This document shows positions 9,458 to 60,206 of a stretch of 64,000 nucleotides of DNA, in pieces. The position numbers were made by a program, and so were the translations under genes. The notes under the pieces were generated by a model. The model did not search any database and was not told where the DNA came from. It saw only the letters and a program-made list of their open reading frames with translations. How positions within the stretch are numbered: the stretch's first letter is position 1; the number at the start of each line of letters is the position of its first letter. The DNA lies in assembly GCA_045125595.1 (NCBI GenBank), contig JBGVNN010000010.1:43879-107878 (forward strand). Reading direction: 5' to 3'. Source of the stretch: Candidatus Egerieisoma sp. GTDB taxonomy: Bacteria; Bacillota; Clostridia; UBA1212; UBA1255.

Positions 9458-9934
9458 TTAATCTCTTTCTTTCAATACTACCGTAATGTGGCTTGTTTTC
9501 TTGTTAATGCGAGTGCCGCGGCCTCTAGCAACTGCGCGCATTCTCTTGAGGGTAGGACCCTGATTTGCATAACAATCAGCTACATAAAGCTTTTCGCTGT
9601 TAAGCTCAAAGTTGTTTACTGCATTTGCTTCTGCTGAATGGAGCAACTTATAAATAAGCTCAGAAGCAGCCTTAGGTGTAAACTTAACGATAGCATATGC
9701 TTCAGCGAGATCTTTACCTTTGATAAGATCAAGAACGATCTTAACTTTTCTGGGGGAAATTCTTGCATGATTTAATGTTGCTTTTCCCTGATCTCTTCCG
9801 ATACCCAGCACTTTACGTTCACGCTTTGAAAGAATGAACGGTTTGTTACTCTGACGTGACTGGGAGTTGTATTTTTCGATGAGCTCTTCTCTTCTTGAGA
9901 GAAGCTCTGATTCACTCATAATTTTTCTTTCCAA
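9458..9934 (-). CDS. rplV: 50S ribosomal protein L22 (with N-terminal extension)
   Basis: ...ATLNHARISPRKVKIVLDLIKGKDLAEAYAIVKFTPKAASELIYKLLHSAEANAVNN... Confidence 0.9.
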   Translation of the reverse strand: MERKIMSESELLSRREELIEKYNSQSRQSNKPFILSKRERKVLGIGRDQGKATLNHARISPRKVKIVLDLIKGKDLAEAYAIVKFTPKAASELIYKLLHSAEANAVNNFELNSEKLYVADCYANQGPTLKRMRAVARGRGTRINKKTSHITVVLKERD

Positions 9935-13149: not shown

Positions 13150-13464
13150 ACTTTTGAAACCTCTTTCTTTTAATTAGATGTTTTTCGTTACGTATAACAG
13201 CTCGCACCCGTTTTCTTGTCACCCCGTCGTGTGTTTCATGTTCATCTCAATAAAAAAACCAAATTGAAATATCCTTCTCTTGAAGGATTTCAACCTGGGC
13301 ATAGATAAACACTTTACATACAACATGATACAATATTCAAGTGCATGACTTGTCGCCCGGTTTCACGAATCGGACATTCTCCACATGAGTTACCTGCCAT
13401 TCACGCGATCAAACGTGGGGCAGCAATCTCCTGCTTCTCAGTCTGTCAAGTCGCAACAGACAAA

Positions 13465-14568: not shown

Positions 14569-15140
14569 AAAAATACCTGCCTTCTGTCAGAATATAATAT
14601 ATTCTATCATATTTTTCATGATTTAAAAAATAATCCTTGCAAAACTCCCTGTGAAATATAAAAAAGCGTAGAAACTCTGTGCTTTTAGTAAGTAGTTGAA
14701 ACAAGATGGTTTGTGTTGTTGGAATTTTCGTACTTTTTTACTACCAAAAGGGACGAAAATTTCAATACAAGCTCACTGCGGAGTCCACCGTACGCGATTT
14801 TCGTACTTTTTACCCCGAAAAATTGTCAACGATTTTTTGTTGACTTGTTGCGCAGAAAAATTTCTTCACAATAAATGCGTTTTTGTGGGAGAAAAGAGAA
14901 ATGTTTCTCCCCAAAACAGGCATTTTTTGTGAGAAAACACTACTTCAAGCCTCTTTAATGCAACTTCAAACGACTTCTAGAGAGTTTTTCTCTACAAATC
15001 CCGGCTTTTTGTGGGAGAAAATTCACAAAGCTGTCAACGAATATAAAATTCCCAAGTCAACCGCTATAAAATTCTCAAGAAAGTTTGACATTGAACGCAA
15101 AGAAGTGTATTCTTTATATATTCTTTTATGAGGTGGAAAT

Positions 15141-45513: not shown

Positions 45514-47282
45514 TCGGAAATCACTCCTTCCTGTTGTGATGTGTATACTTCTTTATAAATCTCGCAAGTTTGCAAAAGTTCTTCGTGTGTGCCGACTGCG
45601 TTTATCTTGCCGTCATCCAACACTACAATCCTGTCAGCGTGTGAAATTGAATTAATACGCTGTGCTATTATAATTGTTGTAATGCCTTTGAGTTCTTTGG
45701 CAAAAGCCTCTCGTATCTTGGCATCCGTTGCGGTATCGACTGCGCTCGTGGAGTCATCAAGTATAATAATTTTCGGTTTTTTAAGAAGTGCCCTTGCGAT
45801 ACAAAGTCTCTGTTTTTGTCCTCCCGAGAAGTTTGCTCCGCCTTGGCTTACTTCGCTGTCAAGTGCCCCGGGCTTTTTACTTATAAAGTCCCATGCCTGT
45901 GCCTGCTTGCAAGCTTCAATTATTTCTTCATCTGTGGCGTCGGGATTACCCCATTTCATGTTATCTCTGACTGTACCTGAGAAAAGTGTATTTTTTTGAA
46001 GCACCATGGCGACCGCATCATGCAGCGGCTCCAGACCGTATTTCCGTACATTATGACCGCCGACTTTTACTTCACCGCCTGTAGTGTCATAAAGTCTGGG
46101 TATAAGCTGTACCAATGTTGTTTTCGCCGAGCCCGTCGACCCTATAATACCTATTGTCTCGCCTGCATTTATGTGCAAGTTTATATTGCTGAGCACATCT
46201 TCTATATTTCCGCTTTTATAACGGAAAGACGCATTCACAAAGTCTACTGAGCCGTCCGTAACTTCTGTAATCGGCTGCTCGGGATCTTTAATATCCACTT
46301 CGGTATCGAGCACTTCCAATACGCGCTGGCCTGAGGCTCTTGCTCTTGTAAATTGCAAAAAGAGCATAGAAAGCATCATGAGCGACATCAAAATTTGACT
46401 TACATATGTAATAAAACTGAGCAAGTCACCGGGTTCGAGTCCTACATCTTTCGCAATATTTCCAAGAGTGGTATCAACGACAATTCTTCCTCCGAAGAAC
46501 ACAATAGCGAGTATGCAAGTATACATTATGAGTTGCATTATAGGCATATTCATAATTACAATTTTTATTGCATTTATACCTGTATCAGTTAATTTATCGT
46601 TTGCTTTTTTGAATTTTTCTTTTTCTTGTTTTTCGCGTACAAATGATTTAACTACTCTGATATTCGTTAAGTTTTCTTGTACCGATGTATTGAGGTCATC
46701 TATTCTTTCATGAAATGCCATGAATCTGGGATGAACTGTTTTCATTATTAATATAATTGCTGTTGCCAAAATCGGTATTGCTACAATAAAAACCAGCGCT
46801 AATTGTTTATGTATAGAAAGTGCCATAATAAGTGCAAAAATCAACATAAAAGGAGAACGCACAAGCATTCTTAAGCACATCATTCCTGTTTGTTGCAAAT
46901 TATTAACGTCTGTTGTCATTCTTGTTATCAATGACGGCACGCTGAAATAATCTATATTTGAAAACGAAAATGTTTGTATTTTAGTAAACAAGTCATCTCT
47001 TAACTCTGCACCTGCGCCCATTGATGCTTTTGATGCCAGATAACTGCTGAAAGCTCCGCAAAACATCGCTGCGAGGGCAACAAGTACCATAAGACCTCCT
47101 GTCTTCAAAATATAATAAATATCTGTGTTTGTGAATACCCTATCTACTGATACTTTGTTTACTATCTTTGCCATAAACATCGGCATCGCTACATCGCCCA
47201 ATACTTCCAAAAGCATTAAAATCGGACAAAGTATCGCATAAATCTTATAATTTTTAAAATAAGACAACAATCTTTTTATCAT
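45510..47282 (-). CDS. ABC transporter permease/ATP-binding protein (partner half-transporter)
   Basis: 590 aa, Walker A GSTGSAKTT, signature FSGGQKQRLCIARA; 4-nt overlap with downstream partner. Confidence 0.85.
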   Translation of the reverse strand: MIKRLLSYFKNYKIYAILCPILMLLEVLGDVAMPMFMAKIVNKVSVDRVFTNTDIYYILKTGGLMVLVALAAMFCGAFSSYLASKASMGAGAELRDDLFTKIQTFSFSNIDYFSVPSLITRMTTDVNNLQQTGMMCLRMLVRSPFMLIFALIMALSIHKQLALVFIVAIPILATAIILIMKTVHPRFMAFHERIDDLNTSVQENLTNIRVVKSFVREKQEKEKFKKANDKLTDTGINAIKIVIMNMPIMQLIMYTCILAIVFFGGRIVVDTTLGNIAKDVGLEPGDLLSFITYVSQILMSLMMLSMLFLQFTRARASGQRVLEVLDTEVDIKDPEQPITEVTDGSVDFVNASFRYKSGNIEDVLSNINLHINAGETIGIIGSTGSAKTTLVQLIPRLYDTTGGEVKVGGHNVRKYGLEPLHDAVAMVLQKNTLFSGTVRDNMKWGNPDATDEEIIEACKQAQAWDFISKKPGALDSEVSQGGANFSGGQKQRLCIARALLKKPKIIILDDSTSAVDTATDAKIREAFAKELKGITTIIIAQRINSISHADRIVVLDDGKINAVGTHEELLQTCEIYKEVYTSQQEGVISE

Positions 47283-47771
47283 AATTCTATTCCTTTCTTT
47301 ATTTCGTCAACATTTGCTTGTATTCTATCCAAATAGGCAAACAGTTGCTTTGTTTCTTTATCTGAAAATCCTTTTAGCATCGCTTTGTCTATCTCCATTG
47401 TCTTGCCAAATGTATCTTCATGTATATTTCTGCCTTTTTCTGTAAGCTTGATTTTGTTTTTGCGCGTATCTTCTTCTAAAGAAATTCTTTGTATAAGTCC
47501 GGCCTTTTCTAACCTTTTAAGCGTAGCCGACATCGCTGCTGCCGATGTGTTCATAGCTTCTGCCAATTCTTTTTGCGTTGGTTCGTCCATTCTGTCAATC
47601 ATACCCAACACAGGAGGCTGTGTATAATGCAATTTATAATCCTCCAGCATTTCTGTTATCGCAATCATTCTGCTATGTTTTATATTACGGATTTTCCAAA
47701 AAAATGCCGCCCCACTGTTATCCTTCGCAAATGCAGGCATCTTTGATTCATCAAATTTTATATTTTTTGCC
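47279..47771 (-). CDS. MarR-family transcriptional regulator (start at MAKNIKFDE; the longer ORF-track N-terminus runs into the tandem repeat and promoter)
   Basis: wHTH region ...TQKELAEAMNTSAAAMSATLKRLEKAGLIQRISLEEDTRKNKIKLTEKG...; overlaps the ABC gene start. Confidence 0.8.
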
Positions 47772-47807
47772 ATACGATGTGCACCTTTCTTGTTTAATGC
47801 CTTGTGA

Positions 47808-47839
47808 AGTATAATGCTAAACCGATTAATTGTCAATCG
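47808..47839 (-). promoter_or_regulatory. sigmaA promoter for the marR-ABC operon (-35 TTGACA 47831-47836, -10 TATACT 47808-47813, 17-nt spacer) overlapped by the pseudo-palindrome CGATTAATTGTCAATCG (47823-47839), a candidate MarR operator
   Basis: Read directly on the minus strand: cgaTTGACAattaatcggtttagcatTATACTtc. Confidence 0.5.
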
Positions 47840-47848
47840 ATTAACTAT

Positions 47849-48120
47849 TTTTTCGTACTTTTTTATAGCCTTTTGGGACGAAATTCTCACCCCGACACCT
47901 CGCTATCACGTTCAAATCATATTTTTCGTACTTTTTCATAGGCTTTTGGGACGAAATTCTCACCCCGGCACCTCGCTATCACGTTCAAATCATAATTTTC
48001 GTACTTTTTCATGGCCTTTTGGGACGAAATTCTCACCCCGATACCTCGCTATCACGTTCAAATCATATTTTTCGTGCATTTTCATGGCCTTTTGGGACGA
48101 AATTCTCACCCCAATACCTC
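47849..48120. repeat. tandem direct repeat, 73-bp unit, about 3.7 copies, about 93 percent identity
   Basis: Unit ttttcgtactttttcatggccttttgggacgaaattctcaccccgatacctcgctatcacgttcaaatcata begins at 47849, 47922, 47995 and 48068 (truncated). Confidence 0.9.
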
Positions 48121-48130
48121 TCGCACCTGT

Positions 48131-48159
48131 AACAGCAAGGCGACCTTCTTCATAATATA
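48131..48159 (+). promoter_or_regulatory. candidate sigmaK-type promoter for spoVFA: -35 AC (48132-48133), -10 CATAATATA (48151-48159)
   Basis: gtAACAgcaaggcgaccttcttCATAataTA matches AC-N16/17-CATANNNTA. Confidence 0.35.
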
Positions 48160-48201: not shown

Positions 48202-49074
48202 ATGAAGCAATACAGAATTACTGTTTTAGGCGGAGATATGAGAAATGTTAAGCTCAGCGAGCTTTTAGCTAAAGACGGGCACAACGTACACACGTTTGCA
48301 TTGGATAATACGGGTAATATTGCGCAAAGATGCTCTGAACTCAGCGAAGCATTTGCAATTTCTGATATAATCGTAGGCCCCATACCTTTTTCAGTCGGCA
48401 ACGGAATATATTTAAATGCTCCCTTTCACCCTGAAAAGATAGAGATTTCAAAAATTGCCGAGGCAGCCTACGAGACACAAAAGTATAGCACAAAATTGTT
48501 GATAGGCGGAAATATTCCGGCACAACTTAAAAGCGAAGTAACAAATTGTGAGGATTTGCTAAAAAGAGACGATTTGGCAATATTAAATTCTGTACCAACA
48601 GCCGAAGGTGCCCTGCAAATCGCAATGGAAGAGCTTCCCTACACGATTCGCGGCACAAAAGTGTTGGTTTGCGGAAACGGGCGCGTCGGCTCCACTTTGG
48701 CACATTTATTGAGAAATGTAGGTGCGGAAGTTACTGTAGCCGCCAGAAAAAGCCGCGATTTTGCACTTTGTGAAGCAGAAGGGCTTAATTATTGTTCATA
48801 TGATGACATTTATGATGTACTGTCTGATACGACGCTTATTTACAACACGGTACCGGCTAAAATATTTGACATAAAATTGCTTGATGCGGTAAGACGTGAT
48901 GCCTTGATTATCGACCTTGCTTCAATGCCGGGCGGAATAGATTTTGACTATGCCAATGCTAATCATATAAGAACAATACATGCGCTCTCTTTGCCGGGAA
49001 AAGTTGCCCCGGTAGGTGCCGCACTCATTATACAAAAGGTTGTTTACAATATACTGAGCGAAAAGAATATCTGA
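48202..49074 (+). CDS. spoVFA: dipicolinate synthase subunit A (start at MKQYRITVLGGD)
   Basis: Rossmann fold GNGRVGSTLAHLLRNVGAEVTV, DpaA-like overall sequence, followed by dpaB. Confidence 0.85.
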   Translation: MKQYRITVLGGDMRNVKLSELLAKDGHNVHTFALDNTGNIAQRCSELSEAFAISDIIVGPIPFSVGNGIYLNAPFHPEKIEISKIAEAAYETQKYSTKLLIGGNIPAQLKSEVTNCEDLLKRDDLAILNSVPTAEGALQIAMEELPYTIRGTKVLVCGNGRVGSTLAHLLRNVGAEVTVAARKSRDFALCEAEGLNYCSYDDIYDVLSDTTLIYNTVPAKIFDIKLLDAVRRDALIIDLASMPGGIDFDYANANHIRTIHALSLPGKVAPVGAALIIQKVVYNILSEKNI

Positions 49075-49098: not shown

Positions 49099-49683
49099 AT
49101 GTTTGAATGCTTCGATGGACTGCGCGTCGGTCTGGCTGTGACCGGCTCTTTCTGCACCCATAGGAACATTGCTGCCGTTGCTGACAATCTTGTGAAGCGC
49201 GGCGCTATTGTTTATCCCATATTATCATATGCCGTCTCGGAAACTTCAACGAGATTTATGGCGAGAGAAGAGCTTTATGAGACTTTGCAGAGAATCACCG
49301 GTCACGAACCGATTTGTACTATAAAAGAGGCTGAACCTATAGGTCCAAAAAAGCTGCTTGATGTTGTAGTCGTCGTTCCTTGTACAGGAAACACCATATC
49401 AAAGCTTGCTAATGCTATCACAGACACGCCTGTGCTTATGGCGTGCAAATCACATTTAAGAAATAACCGTCCTGTTGTCATTGCCGTTTCGACGAACGAT
49501 GGCCTTGCCGGAAATGCTAAAAACATCGGTACCTTGTTAGGTATGAAAAATTATTATTTTGTGCCTTTCAGACAAGACGACAGCGCCAAAAAGCCTTTTT
49601 CATTGGTTGCCGACTTTTCTTTGGTGAATGAAACTGTCGCTTGCGCTCTTGACGGTATACAAATACAGCCCATACTGTTGTAA
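49099..49683 (+). CDS. spoVFB: dipicolinate synthase subunit B (flavoprotein family)
   Basis: 194 aa, GLAVTGSFCTHRNIAAVADNL...VVVVPCTGNTISKLANAITDTPV typical DpaB/HFCD-like flavoprotein. Confidence 0.85.
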   Translation: MFECFDGLRVGLAVTGSFCTHRNIAAVADNLVKRGAIVYPILSYAVSETSTRFMAREELYETLQRITGHEPICTIKEAEPIGPKKLLDVVVVVPCTGNTISKLANAITDTPVLMACKSHLRNNRPVVIAVSTNDGLAGNAKNIGTLLGMKNYYFVPFRQDDSAKKPFSLVADFSLVNETVACALDGIQIQPILL

Positions 49684-52944: not shown

Positions 52945-53158
52945 GATTACACCCTCCTTATCAAAAAGAAAAACATACCAAAAAGTAAAATTCTTAAATT
53001 GTCGTTATCTTGGTTTTATATTATCATTTCAATTGTGAAGACTCAAGGCATAACATGCAAACATTTCATGAACAATAATCTGCATTTTTCCGGCTTATTG
53101 CTGTTATCTGTGAAGGATAGGAATCAATAAATTTTTCTTATGTTAGAGCATTCTTCAT

Positions 53159-53683
53159 TTAATCATAGAAAAATTCATATTCAGGAAGTTTCTTCCATTC
53201 ATTTGTTCCTGTTAATATTTCTTCTATGCCCCTGCATACATCAAGAAATTTACGTGCTTTTTCATCGCTACTAAAGTACAGGGTATTTTCGTATACTGCT
53301 ACTTTCTTATCTATCCCTTCTGCCTTTACTGACAAAATCAAAGTTTCATACGGTGTCACCCAAATATTACGGTTTGGATCATAGACATCGGGATAGGACT
53401 CAATATCCAAATCTTCAATTAATTCCCATATTGCAGCGTACTGTTCTTCAGAAAGTTGAAGAAATGTAATATATCTATTAGGTTCGGTAGCATCTTTTGT
53501 TTTTATCAATTTTCCTGTTTTACTGTCGTACGAACTAATGCCGTAAGTATTCCATACTAAAGAGAAAGAGTAATTCGGTTCATTTTTACTTTGATTGATG
53601 ACAAATGAAACAATACTGAAAACAGCAACAAAAATGAGCGCTACCGTACAAATTATATACAAAAATCGAACATTATTTTTCAT
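53159..53683 (-). CDS. hypothetical membrane-anchored protein (start MKNNVRFLY)
   Basis: N-terminal TM, overlaps the upstream gene stop. Confidence 0.5.
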   Translation of the reverse strand: MKNNVRFLYIICTVALIFVAVFSIVSFVINQSKNEPNYSFSLVWNTYGISSYDSKTGKLIKTKDATEPNRYITFLQLSEEQYAAIWELIEDLDIESYPDVYDPNRNIWVTPYETLILSVKAEGIDKKVAVYENTLYFSSDEKARKFLDVCRGIEEILTGTNEWKKLPEYEFFYD

Positions 53684-54155
53684 TGAATATGAGCTCCTTA
53701 AGCAGGTCAATTTGTGCCTGCGTCAGTTCTGCTTGACCTTTGTCACAACGAGCATATCCCGCTGAAAAATTTATACCATAAACAATACCTAACTCGGTTT
53801 TAACATCGTATTCAGCCATACACTTGCACATTTTGTTTTTATCATATTGCAAATTTTCAAGAATATCTATCATGGTCGCAGCCGAGCTTTCTGATATAAC
53901 CATGTAAGTATTTTCATTTTTGAAATAAATGGTTGTCTGTACGTCGCTATCCGGCACTTTCTCTGTCGGTTGTTGAATAGTTGTCTGCACATCGCTATCT
54001 AACAATTCCCCGGTCGGTTGCTGACATACATCAGCAACGATCGAGGCACTATTTTCTTTATCACTCGGCATTTCCCCAAAAACCAAAACAGAGGCAGCAA
54101 CGAAAACAGCAGCAATACCTATAACGCATACCAATAAAATCCATGTTTTTTTCAT
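53673..54155 (-). CDS. hypothetical secreted/membrane-anchored protein with internal DSDVQTTI duplication
   Basis: Signal-anchor MKKTWILLVCVIGIAAVFVAA; internal repeat is also visible at DNA level. Confidence 0.5.
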   Translation of the reverse strand: MKKTWILLVCVIGIAAVFVAASVLVFGEMPSDKENSASIVADVCQQPTGELLDSDVQTTIQQPTEKVPDSDVQTTIYFKNENTYMVISESSAATMIDILENLQYDKNKMCKCMAEYDVKTELGIVYGINFSAGYARCDKGQAELTQAQIDLLKELIFNEK

Positions 54156-58984: not shown

Positions 58985-59265
58985 ATAAAGAATACAGAGG
59001 ACGAGAAAATCAATAATCCCGTGGTACCACCTCAGTTCGTCGCTACCTCACGATAGTGACCTTTTCAAGTACTAACATACCTTAGTTCTATAACGGGAAC
59101 GCCCGTTGCCTCCTACTAAAGATTTTTATCTTATTCAGTGCACTGCTAGCAGAATGAATTCAGAAGGGCGTCCGCTTTGCCTCGCACCAACCGGCAACTC
59201 TCTCAAGATTCTTCCCAACCTACTGGTTTCTGATCTTCGCATTTAGTGTTACAACATATTTAATT
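58985..59265 (-). promoter_or_regulatory. T-box riboswitch leader, probable Phe (UUC) specifier
   Basis: Minus-strand leader contains AGAGAG box (59198-59204), distal hairpin ttgcc-ggttggtgcga-ggcaa, specifier-loop candidate GAA-UUC-A (about 59155-59162) and the conserved T-box sequence aactGAGGTGGTACCACGGG (59018-59037). Confidence 0.65.
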
Positions 59266-59300: not shown

Positions 59301-60206
59301 TCAAGACTTTATTTTAATCTCTGTACCTCCCCATTCGACTACGGTGAATCCTTTGCGCTCCGGTGCAGTAAACTCTTGTTGCGGTATTTCTACAAACTCA
59401 TCTGACTTTTGCCAAGCCATAAATACACGGATCAAAGTGTCGGGTGCAGGCGTGACATCGAGCTGTGCCGCATCTGTATATATTTCACCTTGAAAAGAAA
59501 TGATGTTATATGGATTTTGCTCCATGAGAGGCAACCAATAAACAATAAATTCATTGGCTTCGCGGCGCGTAAGTCCGAGTTTATCGAGCGCCGCCTCAAG
59601 AAAGGTTGCGGTGTTCTCTCCTTTTATACAAAAACCTTTGGAGAGATCATACTGTGCAAAAGTTTCTCCTTCCCAATAAAGATAATTATATGTTTTTCCT
59701 TTATTGTCAATTAAAGTGCCGTCCGGGAAAGCCGTAACTTCCCACCCTTTTCCGTATTTGGGGTATGTGCAAGTCAATCTGCCGTCGAGCATGAGACTGA
59801 CGGAAACTTGCGTTTCTTTTTCGGGGTAGAGATAAATAACAGGTTTGTAGTCTTTGAGAGAATCATCCTGTTCACAGTCGCTTGCTTTTTCCCAGCTTAT
59901 TGCTGTTATCTGTGCGGGATAGGACAACATAACATAGCCGCTGTATGTTATTTGTACCACATCACCCACTTTAGCGCCTATTTTTTCTAATTTTGTGATA
60001 TTAAAGGAAATTTTGGCATTGTTTGTTCTTTCGGGTTCACCCTCGATAGGTTCAACCAAAACAGAAGTGTCATTTATTTCTATAACTTTAGCGTAAAATG
60101 TCTGTTCATTATTATCTTTCTTAATAAAGAAAAACAACACAATCAATAATACAGCAAGCAACGCGACAACTATAGTAATAGGTATCCAAATTTTCTTTTT
60201 CAGCAT
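59301..60206 (-). CDS. hypothetical membrane-anchored protein (301 aa)
   Basis: N-terminal TM IPITIVVALLAVLLIVLFFFI, two beta-rich extracytoplasmic domains; a remnant paralog copy lies at 53060-53128. Confidence 0.55.
   Translation of the reverse strand: MLKKKIWIPITIVVALLAVLLIVLFFFIKKDNNEQTFYAKVIEINDTSVLVEPIEGEPERTNNAKISFNITKLEKIGAKVGDVVQITYSGYVMLSYPAQITAISWEKASDCEQDDSLKDYKPVIYLYPEKETQVSVSLMLDGRLTCTYPKYGKGWEVTAFPDGTLIDNKGKTYNYLYWEGETFAQYDLSKGFCIKGENTATFLEAALDKLGLTRREANEFIVYWLPLMEQNPYNIISFQGEIYTDAAQLDVTPAPDTLIRVFMAWQKSDEFVEIPQQEFTAPERKGFTVVEWGGTEIKIKS

Follow-up and report, generated by a model that had tools for sequence, protein, structure and literature searches.

Lying between the divergent marR and dpaA genes of this DNA is a tandem array of 73-bp units that is probably a non-coding minisatellite (VNTR), seeded by a lineage-specific, REP-like palindrome that was amplified together with linker DNA. 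The organism belongs to the uncultured gut Clostridia near Candidatus Egerieisoma and Oscillospiraceae-like MAGs, and "the window" refers throughout to the complete 64,000-nucleotide stretch that was analyzed. The array varies in copy number between strains, its palindrome recurs at a second locus, and both homologous arrays and empty sites are found at the same position in relatives; no coding or known-RNA signal is associated with it. The impression is one of dispensable repeat DNA occupying a promoter-free stretch, and not of a novel regulatory or CRISPR-like system.

Anatomy of the marR-dpaA array

Listed below are the features of the array and its surroundings, with positions numbered as in the window.

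47279-47773, minus strand: marR, 164 aa (Pfam; identical protein in other assemblies)
Beside marR, minus strand: two fused ABC exporters (Pfam)
47808-47836, minus strand: sigma-A-type promoter of the marR-ABC operon, TTGACA-17-TATACT (sequence; conservation in relatives)
47849-48120: tandem array, 3.7 x 73 bp (Tandem Repeats Finder, repeat search, unit table)
47848-47920, 47921-47993, 47994-48066, and partial 48067-48120: register of the units
47851-47883, plus strand: palindrome copy 1, TTTCGTAC-N17-GGGACGAAA (pattern match; folds as a weak 6-bp stem)
47924-47956, plus strand: palindrome copy 2 (pattern match)
47997-48029, plus strand: palindrome copy 3 (pattern match)
48070-48102, plus strand: palindrome copy 4, its 5' arm with A-to-G and T-to-A variants (pattern match, variability profile)
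47902-47920, 47975-47993, and 48048-48066: 19-nt linker GCTATCACGTTCAAATCAT (variability profile)
48132-48159, plus strand: candidate sigma-K-type promoter for dpaAB, AC-N17-CATAATATA (sequence of the window and relatives)
48202-49074, plus strand: dpaA (spoVFA), dipicolinate synthase (Pfam DpaA_N; DpaA_N/2-Hacid_dh)
49099-49683, plus strand: dpaB, dipicolinate synthase flavoprotein (Pfam Flavoprotein)

The array stands out in the window. With Tandem Repeats Finder it is by far the strongest such feature (47849-48120, period 73, 3.7 copies), showing 93% matches, no indels, and a score of 467. A first-pass annotation of this DNA had reported about 3.7 head-to-tail copies of a 73-bp unit at about 93 percent identity, and that description holds. 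Moreover, a search for the 34-nt core that allowed up to two mismatches gave four occurrences, versus zero expected from 100 shuffles. A VNTR or minisatellite is marked by units of 10 bp or more that follow one another head-to-tail and are highly alike, and this is the arrangement observed here (73 bp x 3.7, 93%).

The marR-dpaA intergenic region, 428 bp in length, accommodates the marR promoter, the array, and the sigma-K-type motif of dpaA. The array begins 13 bp upstream of the marR -35 box, and the candidate sigma-K motif starts 12 bp beyond its other end. Both -35 boxes thus have the array on their upstream side, and transcription of either flanking operon should not run through it. The coordinates agree with the earlier placement of the repeats between the sigma-A promoter of marR and a candidate sigma-K promoter of spoVFA, and the Pfam assignments likewise support the earlier naming of the flanking genes (MarR, ABC exporters, DpaA, and DpaB). 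The AC-N17-CATAATATA motif, which we take to be of the sigma-K type from the Bacillus subtilis consensus, is kept in all the relatives that were compared, among them L004, L005, L113, and L114. Note that palindromes of the TTAAyCGrTTAA type at 47805-47845 overlap the marR -35 box and are conserved at the same position in every relative (L004-L012, L113, L114, and L118); they probably constitute the MarR operator.

The 73-bp unit is composed of a 33-37-nt imperfect palindrome, TTTTCGTAC-N17-GGGACGAAA, followed by a C-rich tail, TTCTCACCCCRRYACCTC, and the 19-nt linker, GCTATCACGTTCAAATCAT. The linker is found solely between units and is nearly invariant among strains; it bears no significant similarity to either flank, as a duplicate of one of them would. 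The order within the array is X-Y-X-Y-X-Y-X, such that the final linker is missing and the array ends with the fourth tail, 18 nt past palindrome copy 4. As DNA, the palindrome of the window array is the weakest of its family, with a 6-bp stem, a folding energy of -3.1 kcal/mol, and a z-score of -1.6.

The AA/TT dinucleotides within the 73-nt units display a peak at harmonic 7, corresponding to 10.43 bp or exactly one-seventh of the unit. This peak ranks first of 36 and was reached by 0-8 of 3000 dinucleotide-preserving shuffles. The tracts are thus phased, with every 73-nt unit in helical register, and such phasing predicts that the DNA is curved. A unit of 73 bp amounts to seven helical turns, and the 52-53-bp units of the relatives described below to five; A/T phasing was looked for in the 52/53-bp units and was not seen.

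Long open reading frames do run across the array, namely one of 113 aa on the plus strand and a GTG-extended, 203-aa "MarR", and they change with copy number. Because 73 is not a multiple of 3, these frames pass through all three frames of the unit. No homologs of the translations from either strand were found among 5.8 billion proteins, in keeping with the first-pass view that the reading frames are repeat artefacts. The array therefore yields spurious gene calls, including that of the "extended MarR".

The Rfam 15 covariance models gave no match to the window array at the gathering threshold or at E<=10, and none to the related arrays of the relatives. The RNA of the array folds no better than shuffled sequences (z +0.21; z -0.25 for a single unit). 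With the fold at shuffle level and Rfam without a match, a structured RNA or riboswitch is rejected for now. Elsewhere in the window, Rfam identified a T-box leader at 58994-59246 (minus strand, 104 bits) and an S10-Clostridia ribosomal protein leader at 13350-13448 (minus strand, 37 bits), both of them ordinary features.

Variation within the species and a second locus

Assemblies of the same species were found via proteins identical to those of the window, and six of them span marR-dpaA. The array has 1.7 copies of the unit in L003, L099, and L100, 2.7 copies in L104, and 3.7 copies in the window and in L098, as counted in short-read assemblies, in which tandem repeats may be collapsed. The between-strain polymorphism in copy number that typifies a VNTR is thus present at marR-dpaA, and the second locus described below varies as well. 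Each assembly spanning the array has its own SNPs, and the variants of the two terminal copies are specific to their position, a pattern that gain and loss of internal units would produce. Among 20 unit copies, the variation is clustered in the loop (positions 17 and 20-22) and in the tail (41-51), with the arms and the linker almost invariant. In addition, two haplotypes occur at the junction of the array and the dpaA -35 element (window 48110-48135 versus L098, L099, L102, and L104); in one, ACATCTCTCGCAGATGT forms a 6-bp inverted repeat, in the other, ATACCTCTCGCACCTGT forms a direct repeat, and several linked positions differ.

Short-read assemblers often misbuild tandem repeats, and many contigs, including many from short-read (Logan) data, end inside the array. 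An assembly artefact is nevertheless extremely improbable as an explanation, as is a local duplication that arose by chance and has no broader meaning: the array is present in at least six independent assemblies produced with different assemblers and having distinct SNP patterns, and further arrays of its kind exist at a second locus and in four related lineages. The array itself explains the recurrent contig breaks in metagenome assemblies of the species, and the locus is a ready marker for strain typing.

The palindrome family has a second locus in the window, as follows.

14723-14837, plus strand: second locus of the palindrome family, between yitT (minus strand) and a DUF5050 gene (plus strand)
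14854-15021, plus strand: related palindromic repeats, TTTCTyCAC…GTGrGAGAAAA, three copies at 126-bp and 43-bp spacings

The 14723-14837 locus holds a single complete unit of 73 nt (14723-14795) along with a truncated one. Its palindrome arms are 100% identical to those of the marR-dpaA array, and the start-to-start spacing is likewise exactly 73 nt; the linkers and tails of the two loci, when compared, have no significant similarity (p = 0.88). This locus, too, is situated in a divergent promoter region, upstream of the -35 boxes, and in other strains it contains an additional 73-nt unit. In a sister species, in which the DUF5050 protein is 80% identical, the intergenic region of ~200 bp lacks the repeats of 14723-15021. 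The locus is therefore a secondary, species-specific acquisition, and the element has spread within the genome. The first-pass annotation had described the element as dispersed elsewhere in the window, which is correct for this one further locus and overstated otherwise, no other having been found in ~70 kb. Indeed, neither nhmmer nor regular-expression searches revealed further palindrome copies in the window, in an ~8 kb extension, or in 1.4 Mb of related loci. An exact-pattern scan for the palindrome (22 specified bases) gave zero matches in the GTDB species representatives, IMG/VR, and the JGI metagenomes, the L005 version likewise gave zero in the JGI metagenomes, and the array sequences had no matches to viruses, plasmids, or phages. 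The same annotation had proposed that a unit found only here and invariant in number would probably be a neutral duplication; the comparison between strains that it outlined gave 1.7, 2.7, and 3.7 copies, and together with the second locus these show the unit to be neither unique nor invariant.

The TTTCTyCAC…TTTTTGTGrGAGAAAA family directly adjoins the 14723-14837 array, and its 3' half resembles the 3' arm of the palindrome of the 73-bp unit. The 14854-15021 repeats are reduced to one copy in L091, L093, L095, and L096, and the whole block is deleted in L097. A 76-aa open reading frame called in some assemblies at 14901-15131 (plus strand), ending 9 nt before the DUF5050 gene, overlaps these repeats. 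Its start codon is lost in the single-copy strains and most of it is deleted in L097, and hence it is unlikely to be a real gene; in most strains the C-terminal 35 residues are conserved. Two other repeats in the window were recorded. One is a 48-bp x 2.0 tandem repeat (77% matches) at 53928-54024, inside an open reading frame at 53673-54155 (minus strand), that is also present in L002. The other is a 42-nt direct repeat, with 88% identity between 53081-53122 and 59883-59924, the copies of which are 6.8 kb apart and near the 5' regions of minus-strand genes of unknown function.

With a palindromic repeat of ~37 nt having complementary ends, a regular 73-nt period at both loci, intervening sequences that differ between the loci, and a degenerate terminal repeat at 14796, the arrangement resembles a degenerate or orphan CRISPR-like array in which 37-nt repeats alternate with 36-nt spacers. 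The resemblance does not extend to the "spacers", which are mutual copies: they are >90% identical within the marR-dpaA array and share their 3' 26 nt at the 14723-14837 locus. In the related arrays with 52-53-nt periods, the intervening sequence is only ~20 nt. No Cas-type gene lies beside either locus, the largest open reading frame of the window being 714 aa; the genes flanking the two loci encode, according to Pfam, MarR, ABC exporters, DpaA, DpaB, YitT, DUF5050, a HAD hydrolase, and CorA. Exact 23-24-mers of the intervening sequence are absent from viral contigs, and blastn found no protospacer match in phages or plasmids. A CRISPR array is thus effectively refuted and so improbable that it can be set aside, in accord with the earlier statement that the array has no spacers and is not CRISPR.

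The marR-dpaA site in relatives and the possible role of the array

The marR-dpaA arrangement is conserved in relatives, which the DpaA identities split into two clades, A and B. As had been suggested in the first-pass annotation, the unit was sought in these genomes, and homologous arrays were found at the same site, as were empty sites.

Clade A, window: 73-bp array, 3.7 copies
Clade A, L112 (DpaA 88% identical to the window): 73-type array; the contig breaks inside it
Clade A, L004 (DpaA 83% identical to the window): without palindrome; 29 nt at the site
Clade B, L005 (DpaA 78% identical to the window): 53-bp array x 4.7
Clade B, L114/L115 (DpaA 89% identical to L005): 52-bp array x 6.0
Clade B, L116 (DpaA the same as in L114): 52-bp array x 4.0
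Clade B, L113 (DpaA 94% identical to L005): empty site; marR-dpaA gap of only 111 nt

The palindromes of the window and its relatives can be aligned with hardly a gap, 13 columns of the alignment being invariant, and their arms form a graded series, from TTTTCGTAC/GGGACGAAA through TTTTCTGTCyC/GAGACGAAAA to TTTTGTCTC/GAGACAAAA. In the proposed stem register, 84.5% of the cells pair, as compared with 35-63% in slid registers, and compensatory changes are observed at two stem pairs (CG/UG/UA and CG/UA). The palindromic element was not found in more distant relatives (about 70% identity or less). One of these, L011, has a single hairpin followed by CCCC, similar in architecture and without significant sequence similarity; hairpin + CCCC motifs are rare, a background of ~13 having been counted over 2.8 Mb of strand, which is only a hint that the L011 motif may be related to the family. 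The simplest history would place the element in the ancestor of both clades, with at least two subsequent losses.

A 13-bp direct repeat, CGGTTAATTATTT, flanks the ~490-bp array-bearing insert of L114 (at about 2418-2430 and about 2903-2915) and is single at the empty site of L113. Duplication of a target site would produce this pattern, and so would a deletion between short repeats. Where the site is empty, as in L113, the putative MarR operator is within ~10 bp of the dpaA -35 motif, and MarR could therefore influence dpaA there.

In L005, a strong intrinsic terminator, GACGGGAG-GGC-CTCCCGTC followed by TTATTTT, is positioned at 9853-9870 (plus strand) between the 53-bp array and the dpaA promoter. 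No gene lies upstream of it on that strand, and it is conserved neither in L114 nor in the window. Type III antitoxin repeats and CsrB-type RNAs provide models for an independently transcribed repeat RNA, the reiterated hairpins of which would act as a protein sponge or be processed into units. The L005 terminator, the compensatory changes in the hairpins, and the likeness of repeats plus terminator to type III antitoxin loci would suit such an RNA. Its existence is rather improbable, for the arrays of the window and L114 are not followed by a terminator, no convincing promoter precedes the array, the window array and its single unit fold as shuffled sequences do and match nothing in Rfam, the downstream gene encodes DpaA and not a ToxN/AbiQ-type toxin, and the region is absent in close relatives.

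The promoters are conserved in L113 and L004 despite the loss of the array region. The array is accordingly dispensable, and its loss with the promoters intact, in L113 from a lineage whose DpaA is 94% identical to that of the array-bearing L005, argues against an essential regulatory role. Such a role could be envisaged if a dimeric or oligomeric sporulation or nucleoid-associated factor bound the inverted arms, the phased array loading several proteins on one face of curved DNA and tuning the dpaA and/or marR promoter by copy number. We regard a cis-regulatory platform of this type as possible but unlikely. Two loci whose linkers are unrelated share identical arms, variation falls on the loop and tail and hardly touches the arms and linker, stem pairing is kept among lineages, the A/T tracts are phased at 10.43 bp, both loci are upstream of -35 boxes in divergent promoter regions, and the unit periods all appear to be near whole helical turns, each of which is consistent with a bound factor. 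Set against these points are the fast turnover of unit length, linker sequence, and copy number, the absence of A/T phasing from the 52/53-bp units, and the absence of the second locus from the sister species. Known binding motifs were compared with the arms by eye (Spo0A, SpoIIID, GerE, CodY, parS, Noc, and the sigma-E consensus), and the comparison yielded only partial matches, none of them convincing or conserved among lineages. Were the array to affect the dpaA promoter, a hypervariable repeat would, hypothetically, be linked to the synthesis of spore dipicolinate.

In the minisatellite reading that we favor, an old palindrome with its C-rich tail, just upstream of the dpaA sigma-K promoter, would have been joined with ~19 nt of linker DNA to give the 73-bp head-to-tail unit. 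Whole units would then be gained, lost, and homogenized within the array, presumably by replication slippage or unequal sister-strand exchange, with the first and last copies staying orthologous between strains. The same palindrome would have spread to at least one other divergent-promoter region of the species. Between back-to-back promoters, as in few other parts of a compact genome, added DNA breaks up no transcript, which would explain why both loci are found there. The only likely effect of the array would be a physical one, namely the holding of the putative MarR operator and the sigma-A promoter 146-292 bp from the dpaA promoter, and changes in its length would separate the promoters in steps of seven helical turns. 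The array would be, at most, a curved, helically in-phase spacer between the back-to-back promoters, and we infer that it is near-neutral. Two of the functions offered in the first-pass annotation, an expanded miniature element and a spacer of variable length, fit the 1.7, 2.7, and 3.7 copies, the second locus, and the homologous arrays. The third, a multimerised platform for transcription factors, is weakened by the complete loss of the region in L113 and L004.

Against neutrality stands the persistence of the palindrome at the site, with compensatory changes, across lineages only 78% identical in DpaA, which hints at some constraint. Likewise, identical arms, unrelated linkers, and an exact 73-nt period at two loci are not predicted by pure neutrality. 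A trans-acting factor that recognizes the arms and fixes the period, giving rise to Cas-independent, regularly spaced palindromic repeats in gut Clostridia, is a quite improbable extension of these observations. If it existed, it would explain the identical arms and the 73 nt (7.0 turns) at two loci and the 52-53 nt (5.0 turns) in relatives, and the repeats would represent an undescribed class that builds phased, curved protein-DNA arrays or repeat RNA and tunes sporulation or efflux promoters by copy number.

Comparison with known repeat systems

The mycobacterial MIRU-VNTR loci and the staphylococcal STAR/SIRU elements consist of 40-100-bp tandem units at several intergenic loci and vary in copy number between strains. 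The array is like them in the size class of its unit, its intergenic tandem loci, and its strain-variable copy number, but it has no sequence relationship to them. MIRUs sit inside operons, often with short open reading frames that overlap the flanking genes. To our knowledge, none of these families has a palindrome comparable to that of the array.

Type III antitoxin arrays such as ToxI, CptI, and TenpI consist of direct repeats, each tens of nucleotides long, that stand in tandem ahead of a gene and are followed by a terminator. The present array differs in having longer units, no toxin gene, no promoter, and no conserved terminator, the only one being that of L005. A type III toxin-antitoxin locus was rejected on the basis of the downstream gene, which is DpaA and not ToxN, AbiQ, CptN, or TenpN, and of the lack of a terminator in the window.

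Phased A-tracts that curve the DNA upstream of promoters are exemplified by Clostridium perfringens plc. In the array, too, A/T tracts with a 10.4-bp period are placed directly upstream of -35 boxes; they differ from tracts of the plc type in lying within a repeated palindrome and in not being conserved in the 52/53-bp arrays.

The REP elements offer the closest parallel in architecture and several points of difference. Members of the GTAG and CGTC superfamilies are palindromes of 20-40 bp with an 8-9-bp stem and a 4-5-nt loop (PMC3733652). The array palindrome, by comparison, has a stem of 6-11 bp, a loop of 10-17 nt or more, and no conserved unpaired tag, CGTA/CGTC occurring only inside the paired arm; it is not a member of either superfamily. 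Its units are oriented head-to-tail rather than as the usual head-to-head dimers, and they lie between divergent genes rather than the convergent or co-directional genes typical of REP. Two loci are known, and no RAYT-type transposase was seen within the 64-kb window. The REP survey makes no mention of Firmicutes or Clostridia (PMC3733652), and neither it nor a full-text literature search yielded a description of such a family from this lineage, to which the array adds a REP-like, tandemly amplified palindromic repeat family. Clusters of REPs reiterated head-to-tail with flanking DNA have been described by Di Nocera et al. 2013 (PMC3733652). Like REP/BIME repeats, the array is built on a short, imperfect palindrome that is intergenic, present at more than one locus, and part of a species-specific family, and as in the REP clusters, it has been amplified in tandem with adjacent non-palindromic DNA, its stem pairing kept by compensatory change.
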